Shown here: positions 5,828 to 48,067 of the stretch, in pieces
Position numbering within the stretch: position 1 is the stretch's first letter
How the letters are laid out: each line of letters starts with the position of its first letter
Source of the DNA: a virus
Taxonomy: Duplodnaviria > Caudoviricetes
Strand: one strand, 5' to 3'
DNA: 60,350 nt
IMG/VR virus record: IMGVR_UViG_3300007735_000768
Coordinates: 1 to 60,350 of that record
Made by a program: the position numbers and the translations under genes
Notes under the pieces: generated by a model
Told to the model about the DNA's origin: nothing
What the model saw: the letters and a program-made list of their open reading frames with translations, nothing else
Databases searched by the model: none

Positions 5828-6388
5828 ATGACAACCATTATCGCAGTTCAAGGCAAAGACGGAGTGCGATTTGGTGCGGATGCACAAGTCACAAGTGGCA
5901 ACGGGCGCATTGCTAGACATGCACAGATGACCAAGATAACTGAACGCGGTCAGTATGTAATTGCAGGATCAGGCGAGTGCGCACCATGCGACATTGCGCA
6001 ACATATTTGGGAACCACCTGTTCCGAAAGCATCTGATCACACCGACCTATATCACTTCATGATCGCAAAAGTTGTGCCGTCATTGAAAGCATGTTTTAAA
6101 GAGCAAGAATACAAATGGTATGAAGAAGATGAGGAAACAAAATTTGCATTTTTAATCGCACTCGGCGGTCAAGTTTTCGAGTTAGCAGACGACATGAGTA
6201 TCTCGCTCGACTCCAATGGTTTCTATGGAGTCGGTTCAGGAAGTAGTTATGCGATAGGTGCATTGTGCGCTGGTGCAACAATTGAAGAAGCATTGAAAAT
6301 CGCCGCACGAAATGATGCCTATACAAGTGCGCCATTTGTATATTATGATCAAAAGACTCGTCCTAAAACCACGAAGGCGGTAAAATAA
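5828..6388 (+). CDS. Ntn-hydrolase, HslV/proteasome beta-like peptidase
   Basis: N-terminal MTTIIAV (Thr nucleophile), ADAQVT, GVGSGSSYAIGAL. Confidence 0.85.
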   Translation: MTTIIAVQGKDGVRFGADAQVTSGNGRIARHAQMTKITERGQYVIAGSGECAPCDIAQHIWEPPVPKASDHTDLYHFMIAKVVPSLKACFKEQEYKWYEEDEETKFAFLIALGGQVFELADDMSISLDSNGFYGVGSGSSYAIGALCAGATIEEALKIAARNDAYTSAPFVYYDQKTRPKTTKAVK

Positions 6389-8160: not shown

Positions 8161-9435
8161 ATGCCAACAAGACCCGATCTGAACGAACTAGGCACCAGCG
8201 GCTTACGCCGTAGTGGCGGTTTTATCCATGAGGAATTTTTAACTCAACTACGCGGTAAGCGCGGTCTACTTGTCTATCGTGAAATGGCAGACAACGATCC
8301 TGTTATTGGTTCAATCCTTTACGCGATCGAGAAAGTAATCCTTCGTCTTGACTGGCGCGTTGATCCATATGATGAGTCAGAGGAAGCAAAAGCAATTGCT
8401 GAATTCATCGATGAGTGCATGGAAGATATGTCCGACTCATGGGATCAAACACTTGCATCAATTCTTTCAATGCTCGTTTATGGTTTCTCATTCCATGAAA
8501 TTGTCTACAAGGTTCGCGGTGGCGATTCAAAAGACCCAAAGCGCAATTCAAAACATTCAGACGGAAAGATCGCATGGCGTAAGTTTGCAATTCGATCACA
8601 AGAAACATTAAACAACTGGATGATGGACGAAGATGGCGGTATTCAAGGATTCCGTCAAATGGATCCAACAGGCGGTGGCTTCCGAGAGATTCCTATGGAC
8701 AAAGGTTTGCTATTCCGCACCAATGTCAGCAAGAACAATCCAGAAGGTCGATCACTACTGCGTAACTCATTTAGACCTTGGTATTACAAGCGACGCATTG
8801 AAGAAATTGAAGCGATCGGTATTGAACGCGATCTAGCAGGACTTCCTGTTGCCAAAGTGCCACCTGAGTATTTATCAAGTGGTGCAACTGCGGCACAGCA
8901 AGCCGTTCTTGCAAACATTACTGAAATTGTTCAGAACATTAAGCGAAATGAACAAGAGGGCGTTATCTTCCCAATGATGTATGACGAATCTGGGAAAGAA
9001 ATGTTCTCGCTCGAATTACTTTCATCAGGTGGCTCTCGTCAATTCGATACAGACAAAGTAATTGCTCGTTACGATCAACGAATTTCAATGTCCGTTCTAT
9101 CTGACTTTATCCTTCTTGGACATGAGGCGGTTGGTTCATTCGCACTAGGTTCACAGAAGATGGATTTGTGGACAATGAGCATCGATGCGATCGCTAAGTC
9201 AATTGCAGAGGTTGTTAACCAATACGCAATTCCGCGCCTCTTAAAGTTAAACGGCATGAACACCGAACTTTGCCCTTATCTAACTTACGGACAAGTTTCC
9301 CATGTTGACCTTGGCGAACTTGCCGACTATGTTCAGAAACTAACATCGGCTGGATTGCTGATGCCTGACGAGAACTTGGAAGCATACTTGCGTGAACAGG
9401 CAAGCCTTCCACCTGCGGAGAATACGGTGATCTAA
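8161..9435 (+). CDS. Portal protein (Mu gp29/DUF935-like)
   Basis: NPEGRSLLR, IGIERDLAGLP, GSFALG, IPRLLKLN; first gene of head module. Confidence 0.9.
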   Translation: MPTRPDLNELGTSGLRRSGGFIHEEFLTQLRGKRGLLVYREMADNDPVIGSILYAIEKVILRLDWRVDPYDESEEAKAIAEFIDECMEDMSDSWDQTLASILSMLVYGFSFHEIVYKVRGGDSKDPKRNSKHSDGKIAWRKFAIRSQETLNNWMMDEDGGIQGFRQMDPTGGGFREIPMDKGLLFRTNVSKNNPEGRSLLRNSFRPWYYKRRIEEIEAIGIERDLAGLPVAKVPPEYLSSGATAAQQAVLANITEIVQNIKRNEQEGVIFPMMYDESGKEMFSLELLSSGGSRQFDTDKVIARYDQRISMSVLSDFILLGHEAVGSFALGSQKMDLWTMSIDAIAKSIAEVVNQYAIPRLLKLNGMNTELCPYLTYGQVSHVDLGELADYVQKLTSAGLLMPDENLEAYLREQASLPPAENTVI

Positions 9436-11702
9436 TGTTTGTTGTCCGAAAGGCAGACAATAACTCACCGACTCCACCTCTCAATCCTGACGAAGAAAAT
9501 GTTTCAAAGATTGTTCAACAAGGCATTGGTGATCTTGAAAATGCCGCGATCAGTCGCGAAGTAAAAGATGCAATTGCCTCTCGAAACTATGAGGCGATCG
9601 TAAATGCCTTTCCTTGGGACGAAACAACCAATACTTTAAATTTAACTGCTGACGCATTTGGTAAAACAATTGCAGACAATATTGGCACAGGAATTAAGGC
9701 AGGTTTTAAAGGTCGCTTCGACTACACAGACCCACGATCAATTGCATGGGGAACTGAACAGTCAGCGCGACTTGTTACCGCGGTTACAGACGAAGTTAGA
9801 ACGCAGATTCGTGATGTTATCGGACAGGCATTTACTCAAAACAAAACAGTTGTTGAAACAGCGCGACAACTTCGAACATTTATTGGGCTTAATGCGCGTC
9901 AACAAAACTCACTTGAAAAGTTTATTCAAGCAAACATTGATGCACCTAACTTAGATAAGTTGATCATTGACTATAAGAAGCGCGCTATCAAGTATCGAGC
10001 GAACATGATCGCCCGAACAGAAATTATTACAGCAGAGGCAAATGGTCGCTACCTTGGTTGGACACAAGCGGTCGAGGCAGGATTAGCAGACCCGAAAGGC
10101 ATGAAGCGTTGGAGTGCCGCGATCAGCGAGCGCACTTGCGATACATGCGGTGCAATGAATGGTAAGTCGGTTCAATGGGATCAACCATTTCCAAATGGAG
10201 TATTTAATCCACCCGCTCATGTTATGTGCCGTTGCTCAACATCATTCCTTGATCCTGAGTCAGAGTTAGCGCAAGATTTCATGCCACCTGCCCCTGCGAT
10301 CGTTGCACCACCACGCGAGGACATTCCTGAAAAGATAACTCGGGCGATCAGAGGACTACGCGATTCAACAGCCGCAGTTGAAGCGGCTCATGCAAGCACA
10401 ACACGCGTTTCGGCATTTCAATACGATTCGACAGCAATTGAAAACCTTCATGTTGATGTCGAGAAAGTCGAATTCAATGGTGTGCCATCAACAGAATTAA
10501 GATTCAAGATGACACCTGCCGCATTAAAAGACATTGAAAAGCAAGCGGTTAAGAGTAAAGGCAAGGATTGGTTAGTCAATAAAGAAATAGCGGCGATCGA
10601 TGTCAAGACAGCAGACGGAAAGTTAACATTCTCATCACTTGATCCTGATGCTAGTCAAACATGGACTATTTTAGAACGCAGAACAGTTGGCGATTTAGCA
10701 TGGGATCAACTTGCAAGCACTAACGCAACATATACACGCTATCTTCCTGATGGAACAGCAATTCGAATTATCTCATCTGCTAGAAATGGATACGCATTTC
10801 ACGGAACAACTCGCGTGATCATTCCGGGCAAGCCAACCGCAGAAAAGATTGATGAAATCATGAGCAAGTTAGTGTCGTCTGCTCGTCACTCAACAGAGGC
10901 AGATGTTGACTTGCTAAAAGCAAACCGAATTCTCAGTATCTTCAAACCCGCAGACAAAGACCTTGCTGTAAAAGAGTTTGCAGACAAGAAAAAATATATT
11001 GATGATGTAATTGGCAAATACTGGGGCTTTAAATGGGACGATGTAACTACTGAATTAGATAGTGAAGGTAGATTGCGTTTCTTGCTTCCGCGATCAGTTG
11101 CAGAAAAGATTATGGATAAGACTTCTATTGGTCATATTAACCATTCTTTAAAGTATGGAGTTGTAGGTTCAACAGATGGTTCAACAGTTAAAAACATTGT
11201 TGATTTATTTACCAAAGATGAAAACAAAATGCTCTTGTCAACAACTAATCGTTGGACGCGAGGACTTAACTATGAAGGACAAAGTAGCGTTAAGGATGTA
11301 ACAACGGGTGGCGCGGATTATGTATTTGGTCGCCCCGTTGACAAAGTAAGGGCAGGTTCTTTTCAGAACCTATACCGACTTGAATTTGATGCCGCAGAAC
11401 TATTCCGTCGCACCGATTGGTTTGCATATGCGGCAGATAGTTATGGTGTTCGAAACCCTGCGGCAAAAACATTCTTTAAAGGATCAACAAAGTTCGATGC
11501 CCCTAACTGGTTTGGTGAATTGATGACTGGCGGTAGCAGGGCTGGCGCAGAGATCATGTTTCAAAGCAGTATAGATATGCGTTATGTAACTGCTTTCCCG
11601 ATTCAAGAGAGAATTCAGAAGCCTTTATTTGAGGCATTTTTAAAACTAGGAATTACCGAAATCAACGGCATACCGCTTGATGATTTCTTTAGAACCATAT
11701 AA
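9435..11702 (+). CDS. MuF-family minor head protein with ~480-aa C-terminal extension (putative toxin, ART-like)
   Basis: RANMIARTE, RTCDTC, PPAHVMCRCS MuF motifs; Pro linker; extension with H...LLS...YVF...AEIMF. Confidence 0.85.
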   Translation: MFVVRKADNNSPTPPLNPDEENVSKIVQQGIGDLENAAISREVKDAIASRNYEAIVNAFPWDETTNTLNLTADAFGKTIADNIGTGIKAGFKGRFDYTDPRSIAWGTEQSARLVTAVTDEVRTQIRDVIGQAFTQNKTVVETARQLRTFIGLNARQQNSLEKFIQANIDAPNLDKLIIDYKKRAIKYRANMIARTEIITAEANGRYLGWTQAVEAGLADPKGMKRWSAAISERTCDTCGAMNGKSVQWDQPFPNGVFNPPAHVMCRCSTSFLDPESELAQDFMPPAPAIVAPPREDIPEKITRAIRGLRDSTAAVEAAHASTTRVSAFQYDSTAIENLHVDVEKVEFNGVPSTELRFKMTPAALKDIEKQAVKSKGKDWLVNKEIAAIDVKTADGKLTFSSLDPDASQTWTILERRTVGDLAWDQLASTNATYTRYLPDGTAIRIISSARNGYAFHGTTRVIIPGKPTAEKIDEIMSKLVSSARHSTEADVDLLKANRILSIFKPADKDLAVKEFADKKKYIDDVIGKYWGFKWDDVTTELDSEGRLRFLLPRSVAEKIMDKTSIGHINHSLKYGVVGSTDGSTVKNIVDLFTKDENKMLLSTTNRWTRGLNYEGQSSVKDVTTGGADYVFGRPVDKVRAGSFQNLYRLEFDAAELFRRTDWFAYAADSYGVRNPAAKTFFKGSTKFDAPNWFGELMTGGSRAGAEIMFQSSIDMRYVTAFPIQERIQKPLFEAFLKLGITEINGIPLDDFFRTI

Positions 11703-11711
11703 AATAAAAGT

Positions 11712-12080
11712 ATGATCAACCGCGAAGATGTGCCACAAGCACTTATCACAACACCACCAATCTGGGGTAGCGTCATTCCTGACGAGATGCCTGTATTTGC
11801 CTTTGGTCCTTTTGTAATGCAACGCGGTAAAGATCGATTATTAGGCATGTATTTGATCGAGGAAGAACCTGATCTATTTTGTTTTTGGGATGGCGCACGA
11901 GAACGCTATTTCCAACTTGAAGATACAAAAGTAGAAGGTGATTCGATCACATTCAAAGGCGGGGCATTTCGACCAATTGCTACAACCGATTCAGACATTC
12001 TTGGATTAGGTAGTGATCGTGTTGGCTTATCACAAACCGACGCGGTAAATAGGGCATTACTCCTATTTCAGCCCGTCTAG
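11712..12080 (+). CDS. Hypothetical protein, candidate immunity protein for the MuF extension
   Basis: Directly downstream of extended MuF; own TAAAAT-N6-ATG leaderless start. Confidence 0.55.
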   Translation: MINREDVPQALITTPPIWGSVIPDEMPVFAFGPFVMQRGKDRLLGMYLIEEEPDLFCFWDGARERYFQLEDTKVEGDSITFKGGAFRPIATTDSDILGLGSDRVGLSQTDAVNRALLLFQPV

Positions 12081-12110
12081 CGGTTAGAATAATCGCTGGG
12101 GGGTTACTAG

Positions 12111-14342
12111 ATGCCTTGGACGATCGAAACAAAAGCACCTGACTGCAAGAGCGGCTATGCCGTTGTTGACGCAAAGGGCAAAACTGTTGGTTGCCATAAA
12201 ACCCGCGCAGATGCCTTATCTCATCAACGCGCACTTTATGTCAATGTAAAGGATGTCACTCAAAAGGACGATCCGACCGCAACCGATGTTCATGTAGACA
12301 CGATCATGCGCCCCTTTAAGATTAAGAAGCCCGCTTTATCAAAGAGCGTAGACACTTTAATTTCACAGCACGACAAACTCCATACTCAAACCGATTCCCC
12401 AAATGATGCACAACTATTCGTTCATCATGCGATCATGGAAGCGATTAGCAAGGCAGGACAAGAGGTAGATTGTTCTTGCGGTGCATGGAGTCAACCTTTA
12501 CTACTTAATAGCGTTTCAACAACCCTTGACGCGCTCGCAAAGGCAGAAAACCCTTCATTGTCACCTGTTGGTCAAATCATTCAAACAGGCATCGATCAAG
12601 GATATAAGTTTGCCGATGTTCTCCACATGCTCGATGTTGGCGGCTACATGATCGTAGTTCGACCAAAAGAAATCGTTGAAGATAGTCAATCCCCAACACT
12701 CGTTGACAAAATCAAAGGATTTATGTCAAAGGAAAAAGCAATTCCCGACTCATTTGTTCCACCACAAGCGGTTCGAGATGAAGCAAAACGCGCCCTTGAA
12801 TGGATAAAAGAAGGACATGCTGGCGCAGGATTTACCGATGTAGGACGCGCTCGCGCCGCCCAACTTGCCAATGGCGAAGGTGTTTCAAGAGAAACCCTCG
12901 CTCGTATGAAATCTTTTCTTGCTCGACATTCAGTTGATGCACAAGGTAAGGGTTATCACACAGGCGAGGCTGGGTATCCGTCACCCGGTCGGGTTGCGTT
13001 TGCCGCATGGGGTGGGTCTGCGGCAAAGACTTGGGTAGATAAACTGTTTCGACAGTATGATCTTGCAAAATCAACAGGCGAGATTGAAACAGTATTTAAA
13101 TCTAATGAAAAGCGATTCACACTCGGACCTTGGTATATCCCTGATCGACAAGATGCGCATGGGGAATGGACAGATAGCGAAGAATTACAAACTGCTCTAT
13201 GGGATTATGTGAAGTCAGGCGATCGTAGAATCCGTTTGCAACATCGTAAGAGTGTTGTTGCAGGTGAATGGGTTGAAACAATGACATGGCCGTATCCCGT
13301 AACAGTTCCAATGATGAAAGCAGACGGCACAGAAGCAGATGTTACTTATCCAAGTGGAACAGTATTCATGGGAGTGCAATGGGAACCTTGGGCATGGGAA
13401 TTAGTTAAAGCAGGAAAGTTAACTGGTTATTCGATCGGTGGTAAATCAGAAAGATTGATGGTTGATTTTCCAGAGCAAGATGATATTATTAACATGCAGG
13501 TAGCAAAACATGGAACGCACGATCAGAAAACTCATGGTCGTCGTGGTGGCATACCTCAACAAGGTGGCGCTCGCGCAGGTATGGGCGATATTAAAATCAC
13601 CGATGCAATGGCGGCTGAGATGCAAGGCGGTTCTGCCGCACCATTCTTAGTCAAAAATGAAAATGGTGATTGGGAATTCACACCTGAGCGTCAAGCATTA
13701 CATGATCGTATAGTCAAAGAATCTGTTGATGGCGTTCCAAGTTCCGCAGACCCAACATATGTTGTTATGGGTGGTGGACCCGCGGCAGGTAAATCAACAA
13801 TTCTTGAAAGCGGTCAAGTATCACTTCCAAAGAACACAGTTGAAGTCAACGCCGATACTTGCAAGACAAAACTTCCTGAATGGGATACGGCAGGTGCTAA
13901 TCGCGCTTCTGTTACTCATGCAGAATCGTCATATCTTGCAAAGCGAACACAAGCGGCGGCGTTCGAGCGTAAGCAAAACATCGTGCTTGACGGAACAGGT
14001 GACACATCTCCTGCATCTATGACAGGCAAAATCGACACAGCAAGAGCGGCAGGTTACAAAGTCGAAGCGCACTATGTCACATTGCCAACGGACATGGCTG
14101 TGGCAAACGCACTTGCACGAGGACAAAAGACAGGTCGCTTTGTTCCAGAAGAAGTGATCAGGACAACCCACGCAGGAGTATCAACAACATTTCCGCAAGT
14201 CGCGGGTAAGTTTGACTCAGTTACTCTTTACGACACAACAGTATTTGGTGCAACAAAAGTAATTGCCACAGGCGGTAAAGGTGCATTAGACATCATAGAT
14301 AAAGTCGCCTATGACGCATTTCTAGCGAAAGGTAACGCATGA
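12111..14342 (+). CDS. Multidomain prohead protease (XkdF-like) fused to C-terminal zeta-toxin-like P-loop kinase
   Basis: YIPDRQDAHGEW...LQH...WELVKAGKLTGYSIGG protease; MGGGPAAGKS, VNAD, NIVLDGT, RFVPEEVIR kinase motifs. Confidence 0.85.
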   Translation: MPWTIETKAPDCKSGYAVVDAKGKTVGCHKTRADALSHQRALYVNVKDVTQKDDPTATDVHVDTIMRPFKIKKPALSKSVDTLISQHDKLHTQTDSPNDAQLFVHHAIMEAISKAGQEVDCSCGAWSQPLLLNSVSTTLDALAKAENPSLSPVGQIIQTGIDQGYKFADVLHMLDVGGYMIVVRPKEIVEDSQSPTLVDKIKGFMSKEKAIPDSFVPPQAVRDEAKRALEWIKEGHAGAGFTDVGRARAAQLANGEGVSRETLARMKSFLARHSVDAQGKGYHTGEAGYPSPGRVAFAAWGGSAAKTWVDKLFRQYDLAKSTGEIETVFKSNEKRFTLGPWYIPDRQDAHGEWTDSEELQTALWDYVKSGDRRIRLQHRKSVVAGEWVETMTWPYPVTVPMMKADGTEADVTYPSGTVFMGVQWEPWAWELVKAGKLTGYSIGGKSERLMVDFPEQDDIINMQVAKHGTHDQKTHGRRGGIPQQGGARAGMGDIKITDAMAAEMQGGSAAPFLVKNENGDWEFTPERQALHDRIVKESVDGVPSSADPTYVVMGGGPAAGKSTILESGQVSLPKNTVEVNADTCKTKLPEWDTAGANRASVTHAESSYLAKRTQAAAFERKQNIVLDGTGDTSPASMTGKIDTARAAGYKVEAHYVTLPTDMAVANALARGQKTGRFVPEEVIRTTHAGVSTTFPQVAGKFDSVTLYDTTVFGATKVIATGGKGALDIIDKVAYDAFLAKGNA

Positions 14343-14551
14343 CAACCGATACACCACGAATCGAACGCATGTATCTTGAAATCCTTTTGGGGATTGATCA
14401 AAAAGATTCATTACTCAAACCATTAACCGATGCTGAAAAGGCTCAATGGGGTCGCATCGACAAACAAGTGAAAGAGATTCGAGCAATGGGTGGGGAATTT
14501 GAAATCCCTAACGAAGTGCCTCAATCAAATCCAGTTGCGGTCGTTGAATGA
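14339..14551 (+). CDS. Small protein, candidate antitoxin of the zeta-like domain
   Basis: ATGA-coupled to zeta-like gene; 70 aa, helical-looking. Confidence 0.5.
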   Translation: MTTDTPRIERMYLEILLGIDQKDSLLKPLTDAEKAQWGRIDKQVKEIRAMGGEFEIPNEVPQSNPVAVVE

Positions 14552-14922
14552 TCACTTTATTTAAACATGGTTCTCATGATCAGAAAACGCATGGGCATGC
14601 TGGCTTAGTGCCTCATGGTTCTGCGGGGGGCGATGCAGTTCACAGAAATTTAGGCATGCACCTTGCACCAATTAGCGCAAAGGTTGATGGGATCAAATCA
14701 AATCCAACGATCGCAGGAGATTTAGCACAAGCAAAAGTCACACTTCATGCCGCATCAATCGCACCGACTGCTATGGCGAGCGCACAAGCATTAGGCAACA
14801 CTCGTTTAGCATTATCAAGTGCGGCGCGGAAAGTTACTGGAACAAATACCCCGTTAGCCATTACACTTGCTGATATTGGCAAAGAAGCACAACGACTTTC
14901 TGACTCATTGTTGCGACCATAG
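14548..14922 (+). CDS. Hypothetical protein with N-terminal KHGxHDQKTHG motif
   Basis: Motif shared with the linker before the zeta-like domain. Confidence 0.65.
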   Translation: MITLFKHGSHDQKTHGHAGLVPHGSAGGDAVHRNLGMHLAPISAKVDGIKSNPTIAGDLAQAKVTLHAASIAPTAMASAQALGNTRLALSSAARKVTGTNTPLAITLADIGKEAQRLSDSLLRP

Positions 14923-14934
14923 GAACGGACGATC

Positions 14935-15438
14935 ATGGAAACTGAATGGACATTAGTTCAACCTTCAATGCCTGAAATGGAAATGGAAGAAGTCGTAGAC
15001 CTTCAAAAGAGCCTACGCACACTCCTTGCCAACACAGTAACTATTTCTTTACGCGCTCAGGGATACCATTGGAATGTTCGCGGTATTCATTTCGCCGCAT
15101 ACCATAAGTTATTTGGTGACATCTATGAGGACATTCATGAATCGATCGATCCAACAGCAGAGTGGTTGCGCAAATTAGGTTACGAAGCACCATACACACT
15201 TGGCGAGTTCATGAATGATCGCGACATTGAAGAACCGATCAAGCAGATTAGTTTGGCTATGCAGATTCAAACATTACTGCAAGGCATCGAGCAGTTAGAA
15301 GAATGCACAGAACATTGCTTAGAGGTTGCAACAGCCGAGGACGAACAAGGTCTGATCAATTTCCTTGCAGGTCGCCTAGACATGCTTGAAAAGTGGGAAT
15401 GGCAATTGAACACATCTGTAAATGAAGGGTTTATGTAA
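14935..15438 (+). CDS. dps: Dps-family (ferritin-like) protein
   Basis: YHWNVRGIHFAAYHKLF, D.TAEWLRKLG, C-terminal EKWEWQL. Confidence 0.9.
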   Translation: METEWTLVQPSMPEMEMEEVVDLQKSLRTLLANTVTISLRAQGYHWNVRGIHFAAYHKLFGDIYEDIHESIDPTAEWLRKLGYEAPYTLGEFMNDRDIEEPIKQISLAMQIQTLLQGIEQLEECTEHCLEVATAEDEQGLINFLAGRLDMLEKWEWQLNTSVNEGFM

Positions 15439-15723
15439 ATGAGTATTGTGGTTAATGACGGCAATAGCACACCGATCAATGTTCATGGCATAGTGATCCA
15501 AAAGAGCCTATCTACGGGTTCAATGGTTACATGGCAAGCATCGGGTGGTTCTGCAACTGGCAAAATTGAACGCATTGTTCGCGAAGGCAGTTTGAACATT
15601 CCTAATTCTAAATTTACAATCAACGCAGAAAAAGATGACCCTGCGGTTTTGATCAGAGTTTATCGTGACGGCAAACCAACGGATACTTTGGTCGGTCATA
15701 AAATGTCTACTTTAAAAGGTTAA
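15439..15723 (+). CDS. HVA1/DUF2945-like Tudor-domain protein with short leader
   Basis: GSMVTWQASGGSATGKI...DDPAVLI...VGHKMSTL. Confidence 0.7.
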   Translation: MSIVVNDGNSTPINVHGIVIQKSLSTGSMVTWQASGGSATGKIERIVREGSLNIPNSKFTINAEKDDPAVLIRVYRDGKPTDTLVGHKMSTLKG

Positions 15724-15725
15724 CT

Positions 15726-16160
15726 ATGAGCATTGTTATCAATGATGGCAACACAGCCCCAGTAGCGGTTCATCGTGAAGCGGCAAAGGCGGCATGCCCT
15801 ACTGCAACAAAAGACATTGCCGTAAATCTTGCTCATCGAGGCAAAGCGATCAAGACAGCCGCTTATGGTCCTTTAAATCCATCAGAACCAAACAATGAGT
15901 TTTGGCAAGCAAAGGCTGATAACTGGGATATTTCAATTGCTGAGGCAAAGACATCTCGTTGTGGCAATTGCGCGGCTTTCATTCAAACAAAGCAAATGCT
16001 TGACTGCATCGATGCAGGGTTATCCGCTGGCGATTCCAACTCAGAAAACGCGTGGGATACGATCAAGGCTGGTAATCTTGGCTACTGCGAAGCATTTGAC
16101 TTCAAGTGCGCAAGTAAAAGAACTTGCGACGCATGGATAGCGGGGGGACCTGTAAAATGA
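15726..16160 (+). CDS. Cys-rich conserved phage protein with same leader as previous gene
   Basis: CPTAT, YGP, CGNCAAF, GYC..FDFKC...RTCDAW. Confidence 0.7.
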   Translation: MSIVINDGNTAPVAVHREAAKAACPTATKDIAVNLAHRGKAIKTAAYGPLNPSEPNNEFWQAKADNWDISIAEAKTSRCGNCAAFIQTKQMLDCIDAGLSAGDSNSENAWDTIKAGNLGYCEAFDFKCASKRTCDAWIAGGPVK

Positions 16161-16351
16161 GTATTAAAAGCACTAAGTTGCGCAAGTATCTAACTGTTCC
16201 TGTTCTACATTCATCAGGAAAGCGCAAGAACTTAATCGTTAAGACGATCACAGATCAGAACACATTTACTGTTGGCACATACAAAGGCACAACAGCATCA
16301 GTTACTCGTCAGACACCTTCAACAAAGAATGGCACAGTCTTCATCGACTAA
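16157..16351 (+). CDS. Small beta-rich protein, paralogue A (start revised to 16157)
   Basis: ATGA overlap; IVKTITDQNT shared with next gene. Confidence 0.65.
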   Translation: MSIKSTKLRKYLTVPVLHSSGKRKNLIVKTITDQNTFTVGTYKGTTASVTRQTPSTKNGTVFID

Positions 16352-16356
16352 TTCTT

Positions 16357-16542
16357 ATGGCAAAAACCATTCAGGTTGGAACCGCGCTTCATGTCAAGAC
16401 AACTGCTGGCAGAATTCGTCATGCAATTGTTAAAACAGTTACTGATCAAAACACTTTAACTGTTAGCGTAGGCAAAGGAACAGCGTTCTCTGTAACTCGC
16501 GCATCATCGACTGTTACTCGCGGCACTCAATTTAACCAGTAA
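16357..16542 (+). CDS. Small beta-rich protein, paralogue B
   Basis: IVKTVTDQNT...KGT..SVTR shared with previous gene. Confidence 0.65.
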   Translation: MAKTIQVGTALHVKTTAGRIRHAIVKTVTDQNTLTVSVGKGTAFSVTRASSTVTRGTQFNQ

Positions 16543-16543
16543 C

Positions 16544-17098
16544 ATGACTAACCCCAACCGCATTTCAAACGGCGAGGTTATTGCTCGCAAGTATATTTCT
16601 CGAACAGGTTACAAGTTCGGTGATGATACTTACCAAGAAACCGCCATGGGTTTACTAACGCGTTGGACACCTAACTTTTCTGCAACAGGTTTGACTTATA
16701 CAGGAACAGGCGAAACGCACCCGACCTACAACAGTTACTATGTTAAGCATCTTCAAATGGTGACATTTATTATTAAAGTCAACCTATCAACAGTTACTAA
16801 TTTTGGCACAGGGCAATTCAGCGTTGAACTTCCCTTTTTACCTTTAAACGGATTTGCAAGTCATTTCCCTGCATGGTGCTGGGTTGACCCGACGCAACCC
16901 GCAGACGAATTAAACGGGCATATAGTCCTACAAGCCGATCATCTACCTAATACCAAAACCCTTGACTTGCATTGGTATCAGGCAACCACAGCCGCCCCAA
17001 AACCTATTATAGAAAAGTTATTTGTTCAAGGCGATCCCGTCACTTTGACAACCAGTTCCTTGTTGTATATCAACGGCACTTATATTTCAAACGAATAG
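16544..17098 (+). CDS. Putative virion protein (fibre C-terminal-like beta domain)
   Basis: WTPNF, GTGQFSVELPF, INGTY ending typical of fibre tip domains. Confidence 0.5.
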   Translation: MTNPNRISNGEVIARKYISRTGYKFGDDTYQETAMGLLTRWTPNFSATGLTYTGTGETHPTYNSYYVKHLQMVTFIIKVNLSTVTNFGTGQFSVELPFLPLNGFASHFPAWCWVDPTQPADELNGHIVLQADHLPNTKTLDLHWYQATTAAPKPIIEKLFVQGDPVTLTTSSLLYINGTYISNE

Positions 17099-17222
17099 AG
17101 TTATGGGACACGCGTTTCAAGCACAATTTCCTCAACCATATGTTAGCCTTTTACTACCGAAATTTGGGCTGACCTCTATGGTTGAGGTAGGCGTAAAAAC
17201 CAAATAGGGGTAAGGAGAAATT

Positions 17223-18098
17223 ATGGCGAAAGCACCAAAGATGGTTCGCCTTTCAATCGATGAAACTAGCGGCGTTGATCACCCTGCACATTTAACCGAA
17301 GGTTGGATGATCATGAAATCAGCAAGTGTTGATGAAATCGATGCCGTAATTGATTCTTTAACCGAAACACAAACTCAATCATCAAAGGAGGACTCAGTGT
17401 CTAATGAGAATGAAGTTGTAACTGAGGACGCAGTTGTAGCCGAGGCGCCAGTCGCAGAAGCAACAGAAACTGAGTCACCAGCAGACGACAAAGACGCAAA
17501 GATCGCCGAACTTGAAGCCGAATTAGAAAAGGCTAAGAAGATGCCACCATTCATGTCTCCTGACAAGATGGACGGCGAAAGCGATGAAGAATACAAGAAG
17601 CGCATGAAGAAGATGGAAGAAGAAAAGGCAATGAAGAAGTCTGAGGACACAGTTGAGAAGTCAATTGAATCCGTAGAAAAAGCATTTGCATTTGAAAAAG
17701 CACGCGCTGACGAAGCGGTTGCACTTCTCCAAAAAGAACGCAATGAGCGCGCAGATGCAGAAGCCATTGCTAAAGCAAAGAATTGGAGCAACCTTCCACT
17801 AGATGCGGAAAAAGTTGGTCCAGCACTTCGTCAATTGTCACTAATTAACGAAGACCTAGCAAAAAGCATTGAAGGCATTCTTGAAGCCGTCAACGCACAA
17901 GCACAAACATCAAATCTATTTGCGGAAATCGGCAAGTCAGTCGATGCAGGAACAGACGCTTACTCACGCATGACAGCGCTCGCTAAGGCGGCAGTTGAAT
18001 CAGGTGTTGCGAAGTCAATGGAACAGGCAATGGCAGATGTAGCGATCGCAAACGCAGATCTCTATTCACAGTATCTAACCGAGAAGGGTGCTAAGTAA
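17223..18098 (+). CDS. Capsid scaffolding protein with N-terminal protease-like strand (IDETSGVDHPAH)
   Basis: Acidic coiled-coil with many xxK-A/S motifs; directly upstream of capsid genes. Confidence 0.8.
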   Translation: MAKAPKMVRLSIDETSGVDHPAHLTEGWMIMKSASVDEIDAVIDSLTETQTQSSKEDSVSNENEVVTEDAVVAEAPVAEATETESPADDKDAKIAELEAELEKAKKMPPFMSPDKMDGESDEEYKKRMKKMEEEKAMKKSEDTVEKSIESVEKAFAFEKARADEAVALLQKERNERADAEAIAKAKNWSNLPLDAEKVGPALRQLSLINEDLAKSIEGILEAVNAQAQTSNLFAEIGKSVDAGTDAYSRMTALAKAAVESGVAKSMEQAMADVAIANADLYSQYLTEKGAK

Positions 18099-18100
18099 AA

Positions 18101-18493
18101 ATGGCATACGAATTTAGTAATTACAGCGTAAAGGTAACCCTCGTCGCAGGTGCTGACCTTTCTGCTTTGCAGTACTACTTCGTCAAGTTGAATTCATCAG
18201 GTCAAGCAGTCGCATGCGCGGCGGCAACTGATGTTCCAGTTGGCGTATTACAGAACGCACCAACATCAGGACAGGAAGCAGAAGTCCTAGTTGTTGGCGG
18301 CACAAAGATTGTTGCAGGAGCGGCTATTACTCTCCCATCAGCAATCGGAACAGGTGCAACAGGCAAGGCTGTTGCTCTCGCAACAACAGACACAACCAAG
18401 TATGTAGTTGGCTCATTGATTACAGCATCAGCCGCAGATGGAAACATCGTGACTGCTGTTGTTAACTGCGCTAACGCAACACGAGCAAACTAA
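18101..18493 (+). CDS. Capsid decoration/cement protein (DUF2190-like)
   Basis: Small A/G/V-rich protein, GVLQN motif, between scaffold and capsid. Confidence 0.75.
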   Translation: MAYEFSNYSVKVTLVAGADLSALQYYFVKLNSSGQAVACAAATDVPVGVLQNAPTSGQEAEVLVVGGTKIVAGAAITLPSAIGTGATGKAVALATTDTTKYVVGSLITASAADGNIVTAVVNCANATRAN

Positions 18494-18507
18494 GGGGAGC
18501 GACTTAA

Positions 18508-19485
18508 ATGCCACAACCAAATGTAAATAGCACACACATTGATGCTATTCTCACAAACATTTCTGTTGCTTATCTACAAAAGCAGGACAACTTTATCGCT
18601 GATAAGGTTTTCCCTGTAATTCCAGTAGATAAGAAATCGAACAAGTATTTCGTCTACACAAAGAATGACTGGTTCCGCGATGAGGCACAACGCCGCGCCG
18701 ATGCAACCGAGTCTGCTGGTAGCGGATACTCACTCACAACAGCAACTTACAACACAGATGTCTTTGCATTCCACAAGGATGTAGGCGATCAGACAGTTGC
18801 TAACTCAGATGCACCATTGAACCCACTTCGCGAAGCCGCAGAATTCGTTACACAGCGTCTATTGCTTCGTCGTGAATTGCAGTTCGTATCTGACTTCTTC
18901 ACCACAGGTGTATGGGGAACAGATGTAACAGGTGTTGCAGGTTCACCATCAACAGGCGAAACAAAGCAGTGGTCAGATTACTCAGCATCAGACCCAATCA
19001 ATGACATCGAAGCGGCAAAGGCGTCAATCCTTTCAACAACAGGTATCGAGGCAAACACACTCGTTCTTGGTTACGATGTATTCCGTCAGTTGAAGAATCA
19101 CCCTGACCTAGTTGATCGCATCAAGTACACATCTTCACAGACCATCACAACCGACATGCTCGCGGCAATGTTTGACATTCCACGCGTTATGGTTGCAAAG
19201 GCTGTAAAGGCAACAAACAACGAAGGTGCCGCTGGCGCATACTCATTTGCTTATGGCAAGGGCGCGCTACTTTGCAATGTCGCAACAAACCCAGGAGTTC
19301 TAACTCCTTCTGCTGGATACCAGTTCTCATGGACTGGCGTTTCAGGCGGTCTTGGTGCAAACATTGGAACATCTTCATTCCGTATGGAGTCAATCAAGGC
19401 AACTCGTGTCGAGGCTGAAATGGCATTTGACAACAAGGTAGTTGCTAACGATCTTGGCTACTTCTGGAACACAATCGTTGCTTAA
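18508..19485 (+). CDS. Major capsid protein
   Basis: HIDAILTNISVAY...IADKVFPVIPV, WSDYSASDPINDI, LKNHPDLVDRIKY; strong terminator follows. Confidence 0.9.
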   Translation: MPQPNVNSTHIDAILTNISVAYLQKQDNFIADKVFPVIPVDKKSNKYFVYTKNDWFRDEAQRRADATESAGSGYSLTTATYNTDVFAFHKDVGDQTVANSDAPLNPLREAAEFVTQRLLLRRELQFVSDFFTTGVWGTDVTGVAGSPSTGETKQWSDYSASDPINDIEAAKASILSTTGIEANTLVLGYDVFRQLKNHPDLVDRIKYTSSQTITTDMLAAMFDIPRVMVAKAVKATNNEGAAGAYSFAYGKGALLCNVATNPGVLTPSAGYQFSWTGVSGGLGANIGTSSFRMESIKATRVEAEMAFDNKVVANDLGYFWNTIVA

Positions 19486-19796: not shown

Positions 19797-20369
19797 GTGG
19801 CAATTCCAGCAAACCTCAGCCTTGTAACAGTTACAGGCACATACATCGATATTAGCGGTGTTCCTATTGCTGGACAGGTTAAATTCACCCCACGCGCAGT
19901 TCTTCGAAATGTTACTTCAAATGTGATTCTTGTTAACTCAACGATCGTAGTCACACTTGATGCTAACGGCTCATTCTCACAGCAACTTGTAGCAACAGAT
20001 GACAATGACGCATCACCAATCAACTTCACATACTTTGTAGAAGAAGCATTCGTAGGCGGTCGCCAATTCGATATTTTGCTTCCTGCGGCAACTGCAACAA
20101 TTGATCTTGCAGATGTTTCTCCTGCTATTGCGAACGACGGCACAGGCGCACTTTATATTAGCGCGGCAGAATTCAATGATTATGAGGCGCGATTAACTAT
20201 TGTTGAAGGCAAGGCGGGTGCGGTAGAAACATATCTTGCAAGCCTACAAAGTGCGCTCGCAACTGCTATTACTAATTCAAACAACGCTCGCGCATTAGTT
20301 AACTCATATGTCACCTCTATTGGCAATATAGGAGATAACGGAATCCTTTATCCTTCAAGGGCGTTCTAA
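19797..20369 (+). CDS. Putative virion structural protein (prealbumin-like N-domain plus coiled coil)
   Basis: VTVTGTYID..G.P..GQVKFTP, LDANGSFS; paralogous N-terminus to next gene. Confidence 0.65.
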   Translation: MAIPANLSLVTVTGTYIDISGVPIAGQVKFTPRAVLRNVTSNVILVNSTIVVTLDANGSFSQQLVATDDNDASPINFTYFVEEAFVGGRQFDILLPAATATIDLADVSPAIANDGTGALYISAAEFNDYEARLTIVEGKAGAVETYLASLQSALATAITNSNNARALVNSYVTSIGNIGDNGILYPSRAF

Positions 20370-21442
20370 TGGCACTTCCATTAAACATTACTCAAATCAC
20401 TTTGACGGGTCAGTATCTTAATTTTCAAGGTCAAGCGATCGATGGTCAAGTAAAGATTTATCCATCGCAGGTATTGATCGACTCAGCCGCCGATCGCATC
20501 ATCATTCCTTCAACGATCACAGTTGACTTAGTTGCAGGTGCGTTCAGCGTAAGCGTTCCGATTACAAATGATCCCGATGTTAACCCTTTAAACTATTACT
20601 ACTACTTTGAAGAATCGTTTGAGGGTGGTCGCACTTACATCATTTCATTACCTGCAAGCCTCGGCGCATCTGTTGACATATCCGACCTTCGAACCGATCA
20701 ATCAATTGTTGAATACATTCAACCGATCGCCTATCAACTATGGCCGCCTCTCCAAATACGAACACAGGATCTTGAAACCGACTACATCAATGCAACAAAT
20801 CCCGCAACAACTTTGCCAATTCCGGGAACTTATCAATGGCTCTATCTTTACTTCGATACCTATGCTTCAATGGCAAGCACATGGGCAACATACGCGAGCG
20901 CGGTCAATCCAAATCTTGTTTTAACTAACGCTCGGGTTGGTCAAATCTATGATCGTATGACCCGCCTTAATAATTACTCAGCAACCACAACCGACTTGCG
21001 CGAAACAACAAATTTGGGCGTTGTAAGTCGCACAGGATATAACGCGGTTGCGGCAAAGTTTGGAACATACACAGCAGTCGCGGCTCAGTATGTCAATTAT
21101 GCCGCGCTCGCGTCAGCAACATTTACTTGGTCATATGCGCAAGTCGGAACGCTTATTGGAAACATTGGCAATGCCCTTACGGGAACCGATCGCACCGAAT
21201 ACGCAAGCCTTACCGATCCATTGCTCAGTTTAACAACAACCAAAACAGGTAACGATTATGGTGCTTTGACTTTGTCAGGTCTTACAAACGAGCAAGCCGC
21301 AGGTGCGTTTGCGACATACGGCGCACTTGCCGCTGGGTCGTTTTCTATTACAGTTCGCGATTGGGCTGATAGACTAAGAACTGCGGCTAATCGTCCTTCA
21401 CCGCTACTTACAAGGAGTTATGAGTATGGCATTAACATATAA
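20369..21442 (+). CDS. Putative virion structural protein, paralogue of previous, with TY/YA repeats
   Basis: ITLTGQYLN..G....GQVKIYP; repeated ATYA/TYTA motifs. Confidence 0.65.
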   Translation: MALPLNITQITLTGQYLNFQGQAIDGQVKIYPSQVLIDSAADRIIIPSTITVDLVAGAFSVSVPITNDPDVNPLNYYYYFEESFEGGRTYIISLPASLGASVDISDLRTDQSIVEYIQPIAYQLWPPLQIRTQDLETDYINATNPATTLPIPGTYQWLYLYFDTYASMASTWATYASAVNPNLVLTNARVGQIYDRMTRLNNYSATTTDLRETTNLGVVSRTGYNAVAAKFGTYTAVAAQYVNYAALASATFTWSYAQVGTLIGNIGNALTGTDRTEYASLTDPLLSLTTTKTGNDYGALTLSGLTNEQAAGAFATYGALAAGSFSITVRDWADRLRTAANRPSPLLTRSYEYGINI

Positions 21443-23557: not shown

Positions 23558-24262
23558 ATGTTTTTTAAAAAGAAAGAACCAGTAATCACTTTTGTTCCTT
23601 TCTTATCGTTTCATTTATCTTCTCAACCAGTTCTTGCCTCGCAGGTTGTTCCAGAATGGTATAAAAAAACAGCAAGTTACATACCCGAAGAAAAAAAATT
23701 AACTTCCGAGAGAACTATTAAACGGTGCATGCCTGTTTTCGATGCAATGAGCGCGGGTTATATTATTTCTACGCCTTGCGATATAAGTGTGACTCAAATA
23801 GACGGAGAGCCACAATACGAACCTTCAATGAGAGACACTATTCAATATCATCCTCAAAAACAAGCAACTTTTCATCCTAAAGCACATCCTTTTCAATTCC
23901 CAAAATTTATTAACGCTTGGGGCATAAAAACCCCCAAAGGATACTCATGTTTATTTATTGCACCTATGCACAATGAAAATCCTTGGTTTGAATGTTTAGC
24001 AGGTCTTGTAGACACCGATCGTTACGATGCGCCCGTGAATTTTCCATTTGTTTTAAAAGACCCAAAATTTGAAGGCATTATTCCAGCAGGAACGCCAATG
24101 ATTCAAGTCATTCCTTTTAAGCGAGAAGATTGGGGTTACGGAATTGGAAATGATAAAGATGTTCTCAATGCGCAGGAAACAGATAAAGAATTAAGTATCG
24201 TTTTTTTTGATAGATACAAACGACTATTCCGAGATAAAAAAATATGGAATAGAAAACTTTAG
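23558..24262 (+). CDS. Conserved phage protein (PEWYK...TIKRCMP..DA...GY family, DUF6065-like)
   Basis: TPKGYSCLF, GLVDTD, GTPMIQVIPFKRE; AT-rich island. Confidence 0.7.
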   Translation: MFFKKKEPVITFVPFLSFHLSSQPVLASQVVPEWYKKTASYIPEEKKLTSERTIKRCMPVFDAMSAGYIISTPCDISVTQIDGEPQYEPSMRDTIQYHPQKQATFHPKAHPFQFPKFINAWGIKTPKGYSCLFIAPMHNENPWFECLAGLVDTDRYDAPVNFPFVLKDPKFEGIIPAGTPMIQVIPFKREDWGYGIGNDKDVLNAQETDKELSIVFFDRYKRLFRDKKIWNRKL

Positions 24263-24942
24263 TTATAGTTTTTTTTGACCCATTTATTTTTCTTATACCA
24301 ACCGCTAAAAGAAAGCGTTGATATTCTGTGATTCTTTCTTCCTTCTTTAACGAGTTGATCGTTATCTTCTTTTGATAACCAATCCTCTCGTTTGAAAGGA
24401 ATAATTTGATAAATTGGAGTTCCTTTTTTAATAATGCCTTCAAAATTGTTATCAATAAAAAAAGGTAGCCTACCCGTGTGCATAATTCCATCAGTATCAA
24501 CTACCGCGCTCATTGTTGTAAATGGTAAATCAAATCTATTTAAAGGATGAGTGATCAAAGAACTATAACCCTTAGGCGTTTTCATGAAATAAGGAATAAG
24601 CCATGTCAATCTTTGTTGAGAGTGACCAGCGGGTGTTGGAAGTAACATAGTTGAGTCCATTGGTCTTTGTTCAATAGGAATTAACTCGGGAGTATGCCAA
24701 GAAAATGTTTTACTACCATCGGGTTTAGTTTCTACTAAAATGTCACACCACAATTCGGCAATGTAACCTGTTGTCAATCCGTCCAAAAAAGGAACACATC
24801 TTTTTAAGGTTTGAGATGTTGGGTGACTGTCATAAGTTAACGGGGTTTGCTTATACCAATTAGGTATGTAATTTTTTGCAGGTTTTGGATTATTAAATAC
24901 ATCGCCATTGCCAAATTCAATAATAGGTTTTTTATTAAACAT
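24259..24942 (-). CDS. Paralogue of previous (PNWYK...TLKRCVP..D...GY)
   Basis: TPKGYSSL, VVDTD, GTPIYQIIPFKRE; convergent with 23558 gene. Confidence 0.7.
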   Translation of the reverse strand: MFNKKPIIEFGNGDVFNNPKPAKNYIPNWYKQTPLTYDSHPTSQTLKRCVPFLDGLTTGYIAELWCDILVETKPDGSKTFSWHTPELIPIEQRPMDSTMLLPTPAGHSQQRLTWLIPYFMKTPKGYSSLITHPLNRFDLPFTTMSAVVDTDGIMHTGRLPFFIDNNFEGIIKKGTPIYQIIPFKREDWLSKEDNDQLVKEGRKNHRISTLSFSGWYKKNKWVKKNYN

Positions 24943-24946
24943 TTTG

Positions 24947-26215: not shown

Positions 26216-26284
26216 AAAACTAGCCTACTCTGGTGTCGGGTTGAGTTCAAGCCTTAGTTGGGGTAGGGCGTGTAAGATAGAGGC

Positions 26285-47794: not shown

Positions 47795-48067
47795 ATGAGT
47801 GAAATTATTTTGGCAAACGGACAAACAGGACTTGACCTCGTTGCATCAATGACGAAAGAAATGCGTGAACATCAAGAGGCAATTGCGCGACTCTCAAAAG
47901 AACGAAAAAAGGTAGTTATAGCACTTCGAACTCAATTTGGTTCAGCAGAGTCAACAGAGCGCGTGACATTTAAAAAAATTGCAGAGGCTATGGGAACGAC
48001 CGATCAAAGCGTCTACAAAATACTTTTCCCACCAACAAAGAAAAAATCCGATTCGATTTCTGAATGA
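47795..48067 (+). CDS. Helix-turn-helix DNA-binding protein
   Basis: TFKKIAEAMGTTDQSVYKIL. Confidence 0.75.
   Translation: MSEIILANGQTGLDLVASMTKEMREHQEAIARLSKERKKVVIALRTQFGSAESTERVTFKKIAEAMGTTDQSVYKILFPPTKKKSDSISE

Follow-up and report, generated by a model that had tools for sequence, protein, structure and literature searches.

A conserved box at module borders in the head gene block of an uncultured tailed phage, a candidate signal for loading and processing of effector proteins

The genes between the portal and the scaffolding protein of virus record IMGVR_UViG_3300007735_000768 (Duplodnaviria; Caudoviricetes) are the subject of this analysis, in which the whole stretch of 60,350 bp is referred to as the window. 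This record from IMG/VR is complete and carries direct terminal repeats. The head block encodes a MuF minor head protein with a long C-terminal extension, a prohead protease fused to a zeta-like kinase and a series of small accessory proteins (Table 1), and a short site of the form h-x-K (a hydrophobic residue, any residue and lysine) recurs both in the scaffold and at the borders of accessory modules. Comparison with related loci indicates that the lysine at such borders is followed by a conserved box, which was overlooked in a preliminary description of this DNA, and that this box is a real modular element. The same comparison supports a single [VLI]-x-K signature common to scaffolds and accessory-module borders. 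We consider it fairly probable, on this evidence, that the block encodes effector pro-proteins and polyproteins that are loaded into proheads and cut there by the prohead protease.

Junction boxes

Two sites in the window have His after the lysine (VAK/H and LFK/H, the slash marking the presumed cut) and both run on as HG[TS]HDQKTHG. Related loci were collected by querying IMG/VR with the protease domain, with 208 relatives confirmed and 80 loci fetched; together with two cultured Arthrobacter phages, Laroye and Ottawa (L001 and L002), these make up a set of 82 loci. The consensus of the element, here called the HDQ box, is h-x-K-H-(L-x)-G-x-H-D-Q-x-[ST]-H-G-[SN]-W-A-x-G. The pattern H[DN]QxxH occurs 220 times in plus-strand open reading frames (ORFs) of the 82 loci, and all of these copies lie between portal and scaffold, where box-bearing ORFs account for 144 of 676 (178,396 amino acids (aa) in the region). 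Outside this region it was not found in any of the 945 ORFs (149,874 aa) of the same loci. At least one HDQ box is present in 47 of the 82 loci, and the window itself holds two copies.

The box lies 6-70 residues from the N-terminus in many different proteins, and in proteins of 500-1000 aa it is repeated every 200-300 residues. The residues K, H, H, Q and H are invariant in a 110-row alignment. The codons of the box vary synonymously (His is CAT 124 times and CAC 80 times, Gln is CAA 128 times and CAG 76 times, and four Gly codons and both Ser codon families are used) and selection therefore acts on the protein sequence. When 136 first boxes were scored it was seen that h-x-K is always retained in short leaders, the shortest of which has 6 aa, and that no gene begins at the box. 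A separate observation concerns the Asp codon of the HDQ box, which is GAC 182 times and GAT twice in L003-L082, with 7634 GAC and 9118 GAT genome-wide. Asp before Gln is generally also GAC-biased in the related loci, and both window copies of the box use GAT. Avoidance of GATC as a cause of this bias was rejected for the window, in which GATC occurs 464 times as a whole against 230 expected from dinucleotide-preserving shuffles (0 of 100 shuffles reach 464).

A second box, h-x-K-[YFA]-N-P-x-[HR]-[DG]-x(2-3)-G-R-F-x-[ST]-G-G (the NP..GRF box), was found in 19 copies in L003, L004, L005 and L015, four loci that lack the HDQ box and have this one instead. Some of the copies stand in these relatives exactly at the positions that the HDQ box occupies in the window, at the N-terminus of the zeta kinase and at the N-terminus of the 124-aa protein.

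Both boxes were also followed beyond the set of loci by profile searches. The HDQ profile, seeded with box-containing stretches of 44 aa, found 716 proteins at an expectation value (E) <= 0.01 among 7999 candidates scored. These are mostly of 600-1900 aa, are encoded on contigs of about 52-62 kb and have no informative names; their domains include ADP-ribosyltransferase (ART), ART-PolyVal, GNAT, SprT-like, ATLF-like (zincin-like), DUF3626 and XkdF. The 50 proteins found with the profile of the second box are relatives of the 124-aa protein, protease-Tudor fusions, ARTs and zeta kinases. In IMG/VR at least 120 stretches match a degenerate DNA version of the HDQ box. Among 118 further box loci there, 99 have one or more homologues of nine flanking genes of the window that served as markers (head genes, SSB, a tail-fibre-like gene and a small ORF). 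A tblastn search of two box-containing 44-aa stretches against 50,697 GenBank phage records gave only one chance match at E=9, so that an occurrence of HDQ-like motifs in actinophage head proteins found no support in these records. No Pfam or NCBIfam model covers the box, and a literature search found no paper on an HDQ motif in phages or bacteriophage capsids.

The h-x-K signature

The preliminary description had listed tetrapeptides of the h-x-K type in the head proteins, each of which is indeed present in the window, and had proposed that the scaffold repeats the motif of the cargo proteins. Chance expectations were taken from 1000 shuffles inside each protein. The scaffold has 12 sites against 2.9 expected, a number that none of the 1000 shuffles reached, and its repetition of the motif is therefore borne out. 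Among the presumed cargo proteins the picture is mixed, with enrichment in the protease protein (9 sites, 3.6 expected, p 0.008), a chance number in MuF (3 sites, 3.1 expected) and no more than one site in any of the small ORFs. An enrichment of head over non-head proteins, for which the preliminary description had suggested a check, was found for the cassette as a whole (29 sites against 13.0 expected, compared with 57 against 47.4 in the rest of the genome), unevenly distributed among its proteins. Three of the nine matches in the protease protein lie inside folded domains (AGKS in the Walker A loop, MMKA and LVKA in the protease domain) and are for that reason unlikely cleavage sites; all three are extra matches of the wider expression used here and were absent from the earlier list.

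The enrichment in scaffolds is more general. The pattern [LIVMFA]xK[AS] was counted 406 times in 47 distinct scaffold homologues, which is 4.1-fold the expected 98.7. With other residues in the place of the lysine (position P1 of the presumed cut) the pattern reaches 1.23-fold for E, 1.24-fold for Q, 0.96-fold for D and 0.15-fold for R, the range over E, Q, D, T and N being given as 0.6-1.2-fold. An origin of the motif in the periodicity of amphipathic helices was rejected because the variants with E, Q or D at P1 are not enriched.

The hydrophobic residue two positions before the lysine (P3) was also compared. At HDQ boxes it is V in 49%, L in 21%, I in 10%, M in 8% and F in 6% (94% in sum), and at NP..GRF boxes it is L in 35%, V in 29%, I in 24% and F in 12%, so that every residue is one of V, L, I, M and F. 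At the K[AS] sites of the scaffolds V and L each account for 26%, I for 17% and M for 9%, with V, L, I, M and F together at about 81%, and this differs from other scaffold lysines, at which the commonest residues are A (15%), L (13%), K (12%) and E (9%). At the level of whole genes, h-x-K-[ASH] is present in residues 4-60 of 113 of 249 dereplicated ORFs of at least 80 aa in the region, as against 38 of 295 outside, in counts made without phylogenetic correction.

The N-terminus of the scaffold (17223-17330) has the conserved form ...ETSGVDHPAH..EGW.[VI].K/S, also in the box-less Arthrobacter phages. This stretch is rich in His and Trp and has an h-x-K site at its end.

Modules behind the boxes

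The 298 segments delimited by boxes fall into 34 similarity clusters, and 20 representatives were scanned. Four of these reach Pfam cut-offs (ADPrib_exo_Tox with E 2.6e-19, Zeta_toxin with E 4.4e-23, DUF3626, and MuF with HNH), four have sub-threshold matches only (SprT-like, anthrax-LF-like or M90 zincins, DUF760 and DUF915) and 12 have no Pfam match. The box thus precedes at least 34 unrelated modules, ARTs and zeta kinases among them.

Modularity of the cargo genes across related genomes, which could be expected from the preliminary description, is clearly seen: zeta, Tudor, Cys-rich and 124-aa modules recur fused to the protease, to MuF or within multi-domain proteins. The protease, the N-terminal part and the kinase part of the window polyprotein are all separate genes in relatives. 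The zeta kinase is a separate box-bearing (tagged) gene of 309-313 aa in L003, L004, L005 and L015 and lies in polyproteins elsewhere, and residues 79-317 of the window polyprotein recur in other loci as the opening module of tagged proteins that have 505-806 aa (mostly 744 aa). The Tudor-like domain is fused to the protease C-terminus in seven loci and to the Cys-rich module in three (L016, L017 and L040), it has a box and then one more domain behind it in about 13 loci, and the Cys-rich module is part of a tagged 828-aa protein in L054. The 124-aa protein, whose predicted fold is only a generic four-helix bundle, has orthologues in L004, L005 and L015 that carry the alternative box at the same place.

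The protease-zeta polyprotein

The protease domain of the polyprotein matches Peptidase_S78_2/XkdF (E 3.6e-11; 43.6 bits against a cut-off of 24) and sits near the scaffold and capsid genes. An alignment of 36 relatives, from which one reference was dropped for an internal stop, has a mean column identity of 64% and invariant His and Ser columns. The form h-x-K-[SAN] stands 4-8 residues before a (K/R)R[FY]TLG block in most of the rows of this alignment that reach so far, and also in stand-alone proteases. In Laroye and Ottawa, genes annotated as 'RNA ligase' have an XkdF protease domain at the C-terminus and a remaining N-terminal part of about 220-240 aa, with a site [LI]TK[AS] between the two. 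A further observation is an HslV/proteasome-like peptidase (5828-6388; phrog_1040 E 1e-29, Proteasome E 5e-5) whose gene precedes those of SSB and portal. In principle this second protease could also contribute to processing; in close relatives ORFs of similar length (184-191 aa), with sequences uncompared, occupy this position.

The kinase domain matches Zeta_toxin (E 1.9e-27; 96.5 bits against a cut-off of 22.3). In an alignment to 1GVN_B, GGGPAAGKS matches the GKT of Walker A and the D of NADT matches D67. We take D67 to be the catalytic Asp and the Lys of GKT to be the Walker A Lys; the residues that we take to bind the substrate of zeta are only partly conserved in the window kinase.

The 70-aa ORF that overlaps the stop of the polyprotein has no match in Pfam, PHROG or NCBIfam and no similarity to epsilon. 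It lies downstream of the kinase, unlike a cognate antitoxin of the epsilon or PezA type, and could instead be an antidote of another kind for the zeta-like kinase. Homologues follow a stand-alone or fused zeta gene in L004, L005 and L006.

The MuF extension and its small partner

MuF itself is assigned by Phage_Mu_F (54 bits against a cut-off of 29.6) and TIGR01641 (40 bits against 39.65), and its N-terminus, MFVVRK/A, holds an h-x-K site. The last 466 residues (aa 290-755) match no ART or DarT family at E <= 5 and no PDB sequence at E <= 1, and among GenBank phages they have only one distant match. They have 503 representative homologues at E <= 0.001, most of them at the extreme C-terminus of proteins of 1400-5700 aa; of five such large homologues that were scanned, three match the MuF model close to their N-terminus, with E from 1e-8 to 5e-5, and only one of the three reaches the Pfam cut-off.

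A model of aa 290-755 built from a 33-row alignment has a predicted local distance difference test (pLDDT) score of 86. Its last ~200 residues resemble DarT in Foldseek (E 4.6e-4, probability 1.00), and VIA aligned 156 of 208 residues with DarT 8baq (Z 9.5, root mean square deviation 3.4 A). The top seven rows of the VIA ranking are all DarT (Z 7.9-9.5) and the next unrelated row has Z 6.1. As modelled, the MuF extension ends in a DarT-like ART fold.

The C-terminal domain of MuF differs between loci and so does the gene behind it. In the related loci an ORF of 89-122 aa follows all 12 MuF proteins of at least 700 aa, while behind 12 of 13 complete short MuF proteins (301-346 aa) the next ORF has at least 270 aa. 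Homologues of the 122-aa ORF are found behind homologous long MuF proteins in eight loci (L006-L011, L016 and L019), and loci with other MuF extensions carry other small ORFs. The 122-aa ORF belongs to no known family in our scans, and its model is poor (pLDDT 67; four of five models <50) with no usable look-alike in the Atlas. From its linkage it is a candidate neutraliser of the MuF C-terminal domain. The preliminary description had proposed immunity genes behind both toxin-like domains, and the coupling itself is confirmed for both small genes in the window. Across relatives the proposal fits long MuF, with its constant small ORF, far better than zeta, behind which a homologue of the 70-aa ORF was found in only 3 of 18 related loci.

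The proposed system and its alternatives

In the system that we propose, the phage would keep its genes for encapsidated proteins in the portal-scaffold block. Its prohead protease, of the XkdF type, would recognise [V/L/I]-x-K and cleave after the lysine, with the scaffold as its bulk substrate; filled with such sites, the scaffold would therefore be degradable and able to leave the prohead. The same site would open each accessory module, to be followed by either box and then a Gly-rich linker. Modules would enter by three routes: as fusions to proteins certain to be in the prohead (MuF and the protease), as polyproteins made of several modules, or as single proteins with leaders down to six residues in length. 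In the window these would be the DarT-like ART on MuF, the N-terminal modules and the zeta-like kinase on the protease, and the tagged four-helix protein; the Tudor-like and Cys-rich proteins probably belong with them, and Dps and the remaining untagged ORFs are only possible members. After assembly the protease would separate the modules, which would be kept in the head and pass with the DNA into the next host, by analogy with T4 Alt and internal proteins, P1 Dar and MuF fusions, and the 122-aa and 70-aa ORFs would neutralise the toxin-like domains in the producing cell.

The preliminary description had proposed a system of this kind, by which enzymes and toxins are tagged, encapsidated and released, for the whole block. 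For fused and tagged modules the proposal is strongly supported by the h-x-K sites at module borders and by the fusions; for Dps and the other untagged ORFs it is weak. The most likely role of the box is that of a docking or recognition element, directed toward the protease or toward the inner surface of capsid or scaffold. More broadly, and as a tentative suggestion that we think may well fail, both boxes could be portable signals for capsid loading and processing, by which any carrier would be drawn into the HK97-fold prohead and set free by the prohead protease.

Several points weigh against these proposals. Cleavage, packaging and injection are all deduced from sequence. Relative to the presumed cut the conserved box is on the prime side and would stay on the mature protein, and a prime-side element of 16 residues exceeds the known needs of proteases of this fold. 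In the second box the residue after the lysine is Tyr or Phe in 11 of 17 distinct copies, and these are destabilising N-terminal residues in many bacteria. Contact between protease and box has weak support from docking, by the calibration of the tool itself: the protease domain and the first 50 aa of the 124-aa protein gave a score of 0.35 (best of three controls 0.00) in runs with contact agreement of at least 50% and partner pLDDT of at least 43. The mark is reached by 58 of 80 solved complexes and by 2 of 110 mismatched pairs, and scores <=0.60 comprise only 7 of the 80 solved complexes and both of the passing mismatches. None of the single small ORFs of the window, with 0-1 site each, is individually above chance. 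A small ORF of any kind stands behind the zeta domain in only five of the 18 related loci, including the three homologues. The closest cultured phages, the Arthrobacter phages Laroye and Ottawa, have no box, and their small genes at this position look ordinary. Finally, ORFs in the loci were called by a simple longest-ORF rule, and all counts come from kindred genomes and are hence not independent events.

The first alternative to be considered limits packaging to domains fused to MuF or to the protease. Dps, the Tudor-like and Cys-rich proteins, the two paralogues and the 184-aa ORF would then be ordinary late accessory genes or minor parts of head or neck in a permissive spot, and the h-x-K tetrapeptides of these free-standing ORFs would be chance. 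We think this unlikely, yet several observations agree with it. A single site per ORF is insignificant. When tagged, MuF and protease proteins are removed from the count, 29 of 120 in-region ORFs have an N-terminal site against the 38 of 295 outside, an odds ratio of only 2.2-fold (p 0.008, again uncorrected for phylogeny). The window Dps (Ferritin, 53 bits against a cut-off of 24.5, indicating a ferritin-like four-helix domain) was listed earlier with an N-terminal LQKS, which turns out to be absent from its nearest relatives (L003-L006, L013 and L015), and this counts against the wider proposal as well. At this spot Laroye and Ottawa have small genes for VRR-Nuc, RNase H-like and Cys-rich proteins without a shared leader. 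What stands against this alternative is the behaviour of the Tudor-like and Cys-rich modules, repeatedly fused to the protease or included in tagged polyproteins. In most of the contexts listed, h-x-K-[AES] stands about 8 aa before the Tudor domain, and the two proteins have a common leader, MSIV[VI]NDGN..P..VH, which recurs in more distant loci and ends there in FEK/A. Dps leaders with a site are also found in 10 of 17 distinct relatives, the more distant ones. Among the other untagged ORFs, the two small paralogues share IVKT[IV]TDQNT..V..GKGT..SVTR, are conserved in relatives and have a weak KIF2A-like/Tudor-like match (E 4.7e-4, below cut-off), and the 184-aa ORF has no family in Pfam, PHROG or NCBIfam scans.

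Alternatively, the boxes could correspond to VENN in CdiA or DPxGL in Rhs, as junction motifs with which a polymorphic, recombining protein system marks the points of module exchange and perhaps aids linker solubility, with no role in cleavage or loading; the preceding [VLI]-x-K would merely belong to the junction motif. The boxes do lie exactly at module borders, the modules are heavily shuffled among genomes, the two box types are swapped as blocks between close relatives, and a box would remain on the product if the cut were after the lysine. We nevertheless regard this explanation as improbable. The free synonymous variation of the box argues that DNA identity for recombination is not what is conserved, and the scaffolds, in which the same P3/P1 signature has a 4-fold enrichment, do not consist of shuffled modules. 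Single-module genes retain the h-x-K leader before the box, and the boxes are confined to the head block.

That the MuF-ART/122-aa and zeta/70-aa pairs serve mainly as toxin-immunity or addiction modules in lysogen competition or phage exclusion, the role that has been proposed for MuF polymorphic toxins, and not in host take-over, is very improbable: in its favour are the MuF-toxin architecture (MuF N-terminus, variable C-terminus and coupled small ORF, as given in the available text of PMC5576092) and the joint change of C-terminal domain and small ORF between loci, but an integrase or lysogeny module was not seen among the proteins scanned (no systematic search was made), the small ORF is usually absent behind zeta in relatives, and the idea is in any case compatible with the effector reading, both requiring packaging.

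Gene map and other features of the genome

All of the genes that the preliminary description had reported between portal and scaffold, including seven accessory ORFs, were found where it had placed them (Table 1). Among annotated phages the nearest are Arthrobacter phages, Ottawa and Laroye among them, with a capsid protein identity of 55-59%, and no GenBank phage matches the window at the DNA level. The order portal, MuF, protease, small variable genes, scaffold, decoration protein and capsid is common to the window and these phages. A tape measure protein of 1210 aa and a large terminase (54117-55739) give the window a siphovirus-like appearance.

Table 1. Features of the head block and its borders in the window (nt, nucleotides).
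Feature	Coordinates	Strand	Remarks
Portal	8161..9435	+	Portal_Mu E 4.1e-45, phrog_113 E 6e-96; left border of variable region
MuF minor head protein, 755 aa	9435..11702	+	Phage_Mu_F at aa 173-269, E 3.4e-14
DarT-like fold region of MuF	nt 11094-11699, about aa 554-755	+	Predicted model
122-aa ORF	11712..12080	+	Starts 10 nt past MuF; candidate immunity/neutralising protein
743-aa polyprotein	12111..14342	+	N-terminal modules aa 1-317, XkdF-type protease aa 326-448, box, zeta-like kinase aa 542-707
Paired h-x-K[S] sites, LAK/S and VFK/S	13056..13085	+	Just upstream of protease domain; candidate autoprocessing sites
Junction box copy 1, VAK-HGTHDQKTHG	13500..13538	+	Between protease and zeta kinase; profile E 1.7e-9
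70-aa ORF	14339..14551	+	4-nt overlap with polyprotein stop; candidate antidote of zeta-like kinase
124-aa tagged protein	14548..14922	+	Leader MITLFK (6 aa), box copy 2, Gly-rich stretch, four-helix bundle
Junction box copy 2	14557-14595	+	Start of 124-aa protein; profile E 1.0e-6
Dps/ferritin-like protein	14935..15438	+	Acidic N-terminal leader; Ferritin E 4.6e-14, phrog_3636
Tudor-like (Hva1_TUDOR) protein	15439..15723	+	Leader MSIVVNDGN...VIQK/S
Cys-rich protein, 144 aa	15726..16160	+	MSIV[VI]NDGN leader in common with Tudor-like protein
Two small paralogous ORFs, about 64 and 61 aa	16157..16542	+	Start of first uncertain
184-aa ORF	16544..17098	+	Homologue in L004
Scaffolding protein, 291 aa	17223..18098	+	phrog_13547 E 2.9e-56; 12 [LIVMFA]xK[ASH] sites
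Decoration-like protein and major capsid protein	18101..19485	+	phrog_673, phrog_1005 E 5e-98; right border

Directly after the capsid gene two adjacent ORFs of 190 and 357 aa (19797-21442), kept in relatives, have in common an N-terminal tail-fibre-like domain (phrog_14726). The structural region has its only sizeable ORFs on the minus strand (24259-24999 and 25664-26215) in the stretch 24001-26300, which is low in GC (0.33 against about 0.44); the second of these ORFs has a weak 2OG-Fe(II) oxygenase match below cut-off. A 729-aa ORF without family (42110-44299) has a GC content of 0.50 and a GC skew of -0.25, unlike its surroundings. A ParB-like protein is encoded at 48064-49236. QueC (E 3.6e-61) and a radical-SAM/4Fe-4S protein are encoded at 51175-53649, and the next ORF looks, by its N-terminus, like a GTP cyclohydrolase I-type enzyme; together these suggest a 7-deazaguanine DNA-modification pathway.

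Comparison with known systems

In mechanism the proposed system resembles the internal proteins and Alt of T4, by which non-structural enzymes including an ADP-ribosyltransferase are loaded, trimmed at a site with a hydrophobic P3 and injected, steps that for the window are only predicted from sequence. T4 gp21 cuts at I/LxE according to the available text of PMC12991175. A T4-type capsid targeting sequence, with a leader of about 10 aa and I/LxE, was not found here: the site is [VLI]-x-K, with Lys at P1 where T4 has Glu, and the E variant reaches 1.23-fold in the scaffolds. The protease here is of the XkdF/S78_2 family, the conserved element comes after the cut whereas in T4 it comes before it, in the leader that is removed, and the modules are also concatenated as polyproteins in a siphovirus-like genome of 60 kb. 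The window system would thus work like T4 targeting, and it is not a member of it.

Effector domains (zeta-like kinase, 2H, ART and Nudix) fused to MuF, portal or the capsid-processing serine peptidase have been read as evidence of head packaging in the available text of PMC5512222 (Iyer et al. 2017) and PMC9503650 (Iyer et al. 2022). The polyvalent proteins described there are, like those considered here, multi-domain proteins of the head block with ART, zeta-like kinase, metallopeptidase and GNAT domains, for which packaging and injection are predicted. One window protein combines N-terminal modules, protease and kinase and another combines MuF and ART, and relatives have proteins of 600-1900 aa with ART, GNAT, zincin-like and DUF3626 domains. 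In the text of those papers that was available, processing is assigned mainly to embedded zincin-like peptidases; the present loci, by comparison, as a rule have one uniform junction box and also tagged genes of a single module. In the available text of PMC5512222 and PMC5576092 a shared junction or linker motif was looked for by word search and not found, though their supplements could hold one.

Small ORFs also follow the MuF toxins in the available text of PMC5576092 (Jamet et al. 2017), and the likeness extends to the MuF N-terminal domain, the variable C-terminus and a downstream ORF of <150 aa (122 aa here). Those toxins are described for temperate phages and prophages; the window is a free viral contig with terminal repeats, and the C-terminal domain here has a DarT-like fold without a Pfam match. 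The words 'zeta', 'cleavage', 'linker' and 'conserved motif' were not found in that text. The MuF extension differs in turn from the DarT of DarTG in its sequence (about 10-13% identity, no DarT Pfam match at E <= 5) and in its fusion to MuF, and the ORF behind it is not a recognisable macrodomain. Epsilon/zeta and PezAT resemble the second pair in having a Zeta_toxin kinase with Walker A and Asp and a small coupled ORF, but in the window the kinase is fused behind a prohead protease and the small ORF lies downstream and not upstream.

In SPN3US and phiKZ-like giant phages the prohead protease cleaves many proteins of the head interior at a short consensus, and these proteins are ejected, as described in the available text of PMC10052503 and PMC7411985. 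The protease lineage, the motif and the capsid size are all different here. No conserved prime-side box is known for giant-phage ejection proteins.

What appears to be new is the uniform junction, in which a protease-type site shared with the scaffold is combined with either of two interchangeable boxes, also on single-module genes. Head-packaged enzymes have been known from a few model phages and predicted from domain fusions, and the choice and processing of unrelated proteins are understood only for T4. The present comparison offers a testable sequence rule, by which the scaffold-shared site plus box marks more than 30 module families, most of them without known function, across hundreds of phage genomes from the environment. 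Should it hold, injected effectors could be listed directly from sequence; this would yield a large candidate set of anti-host or anti-defence enzymes (ADP-ribosyltransferases, kinases, acetyltransferases and metallopeptidases) and possibly a tag for putting foreign proteins into phage capsids.

The portable-signal reading has a parallel in the cargo-loading peptides of encapsulins, short conserved peptides that steer unrelated proteins, including ferritin-like ones, into an HK97-fold shell. Encapsulin peptides are usually C-terminal and uncut, and the window Dps, unlike ferritin-like encapsulin cargo, has no box. Should that reading nevertheless hold, abundant uncultured phages would inject interchangeable sets drawn from dozens of effector families, and tailed phages would have a cargo-loading code, comparable to the targeting peptides of encapsulins, that could be used for engineering.

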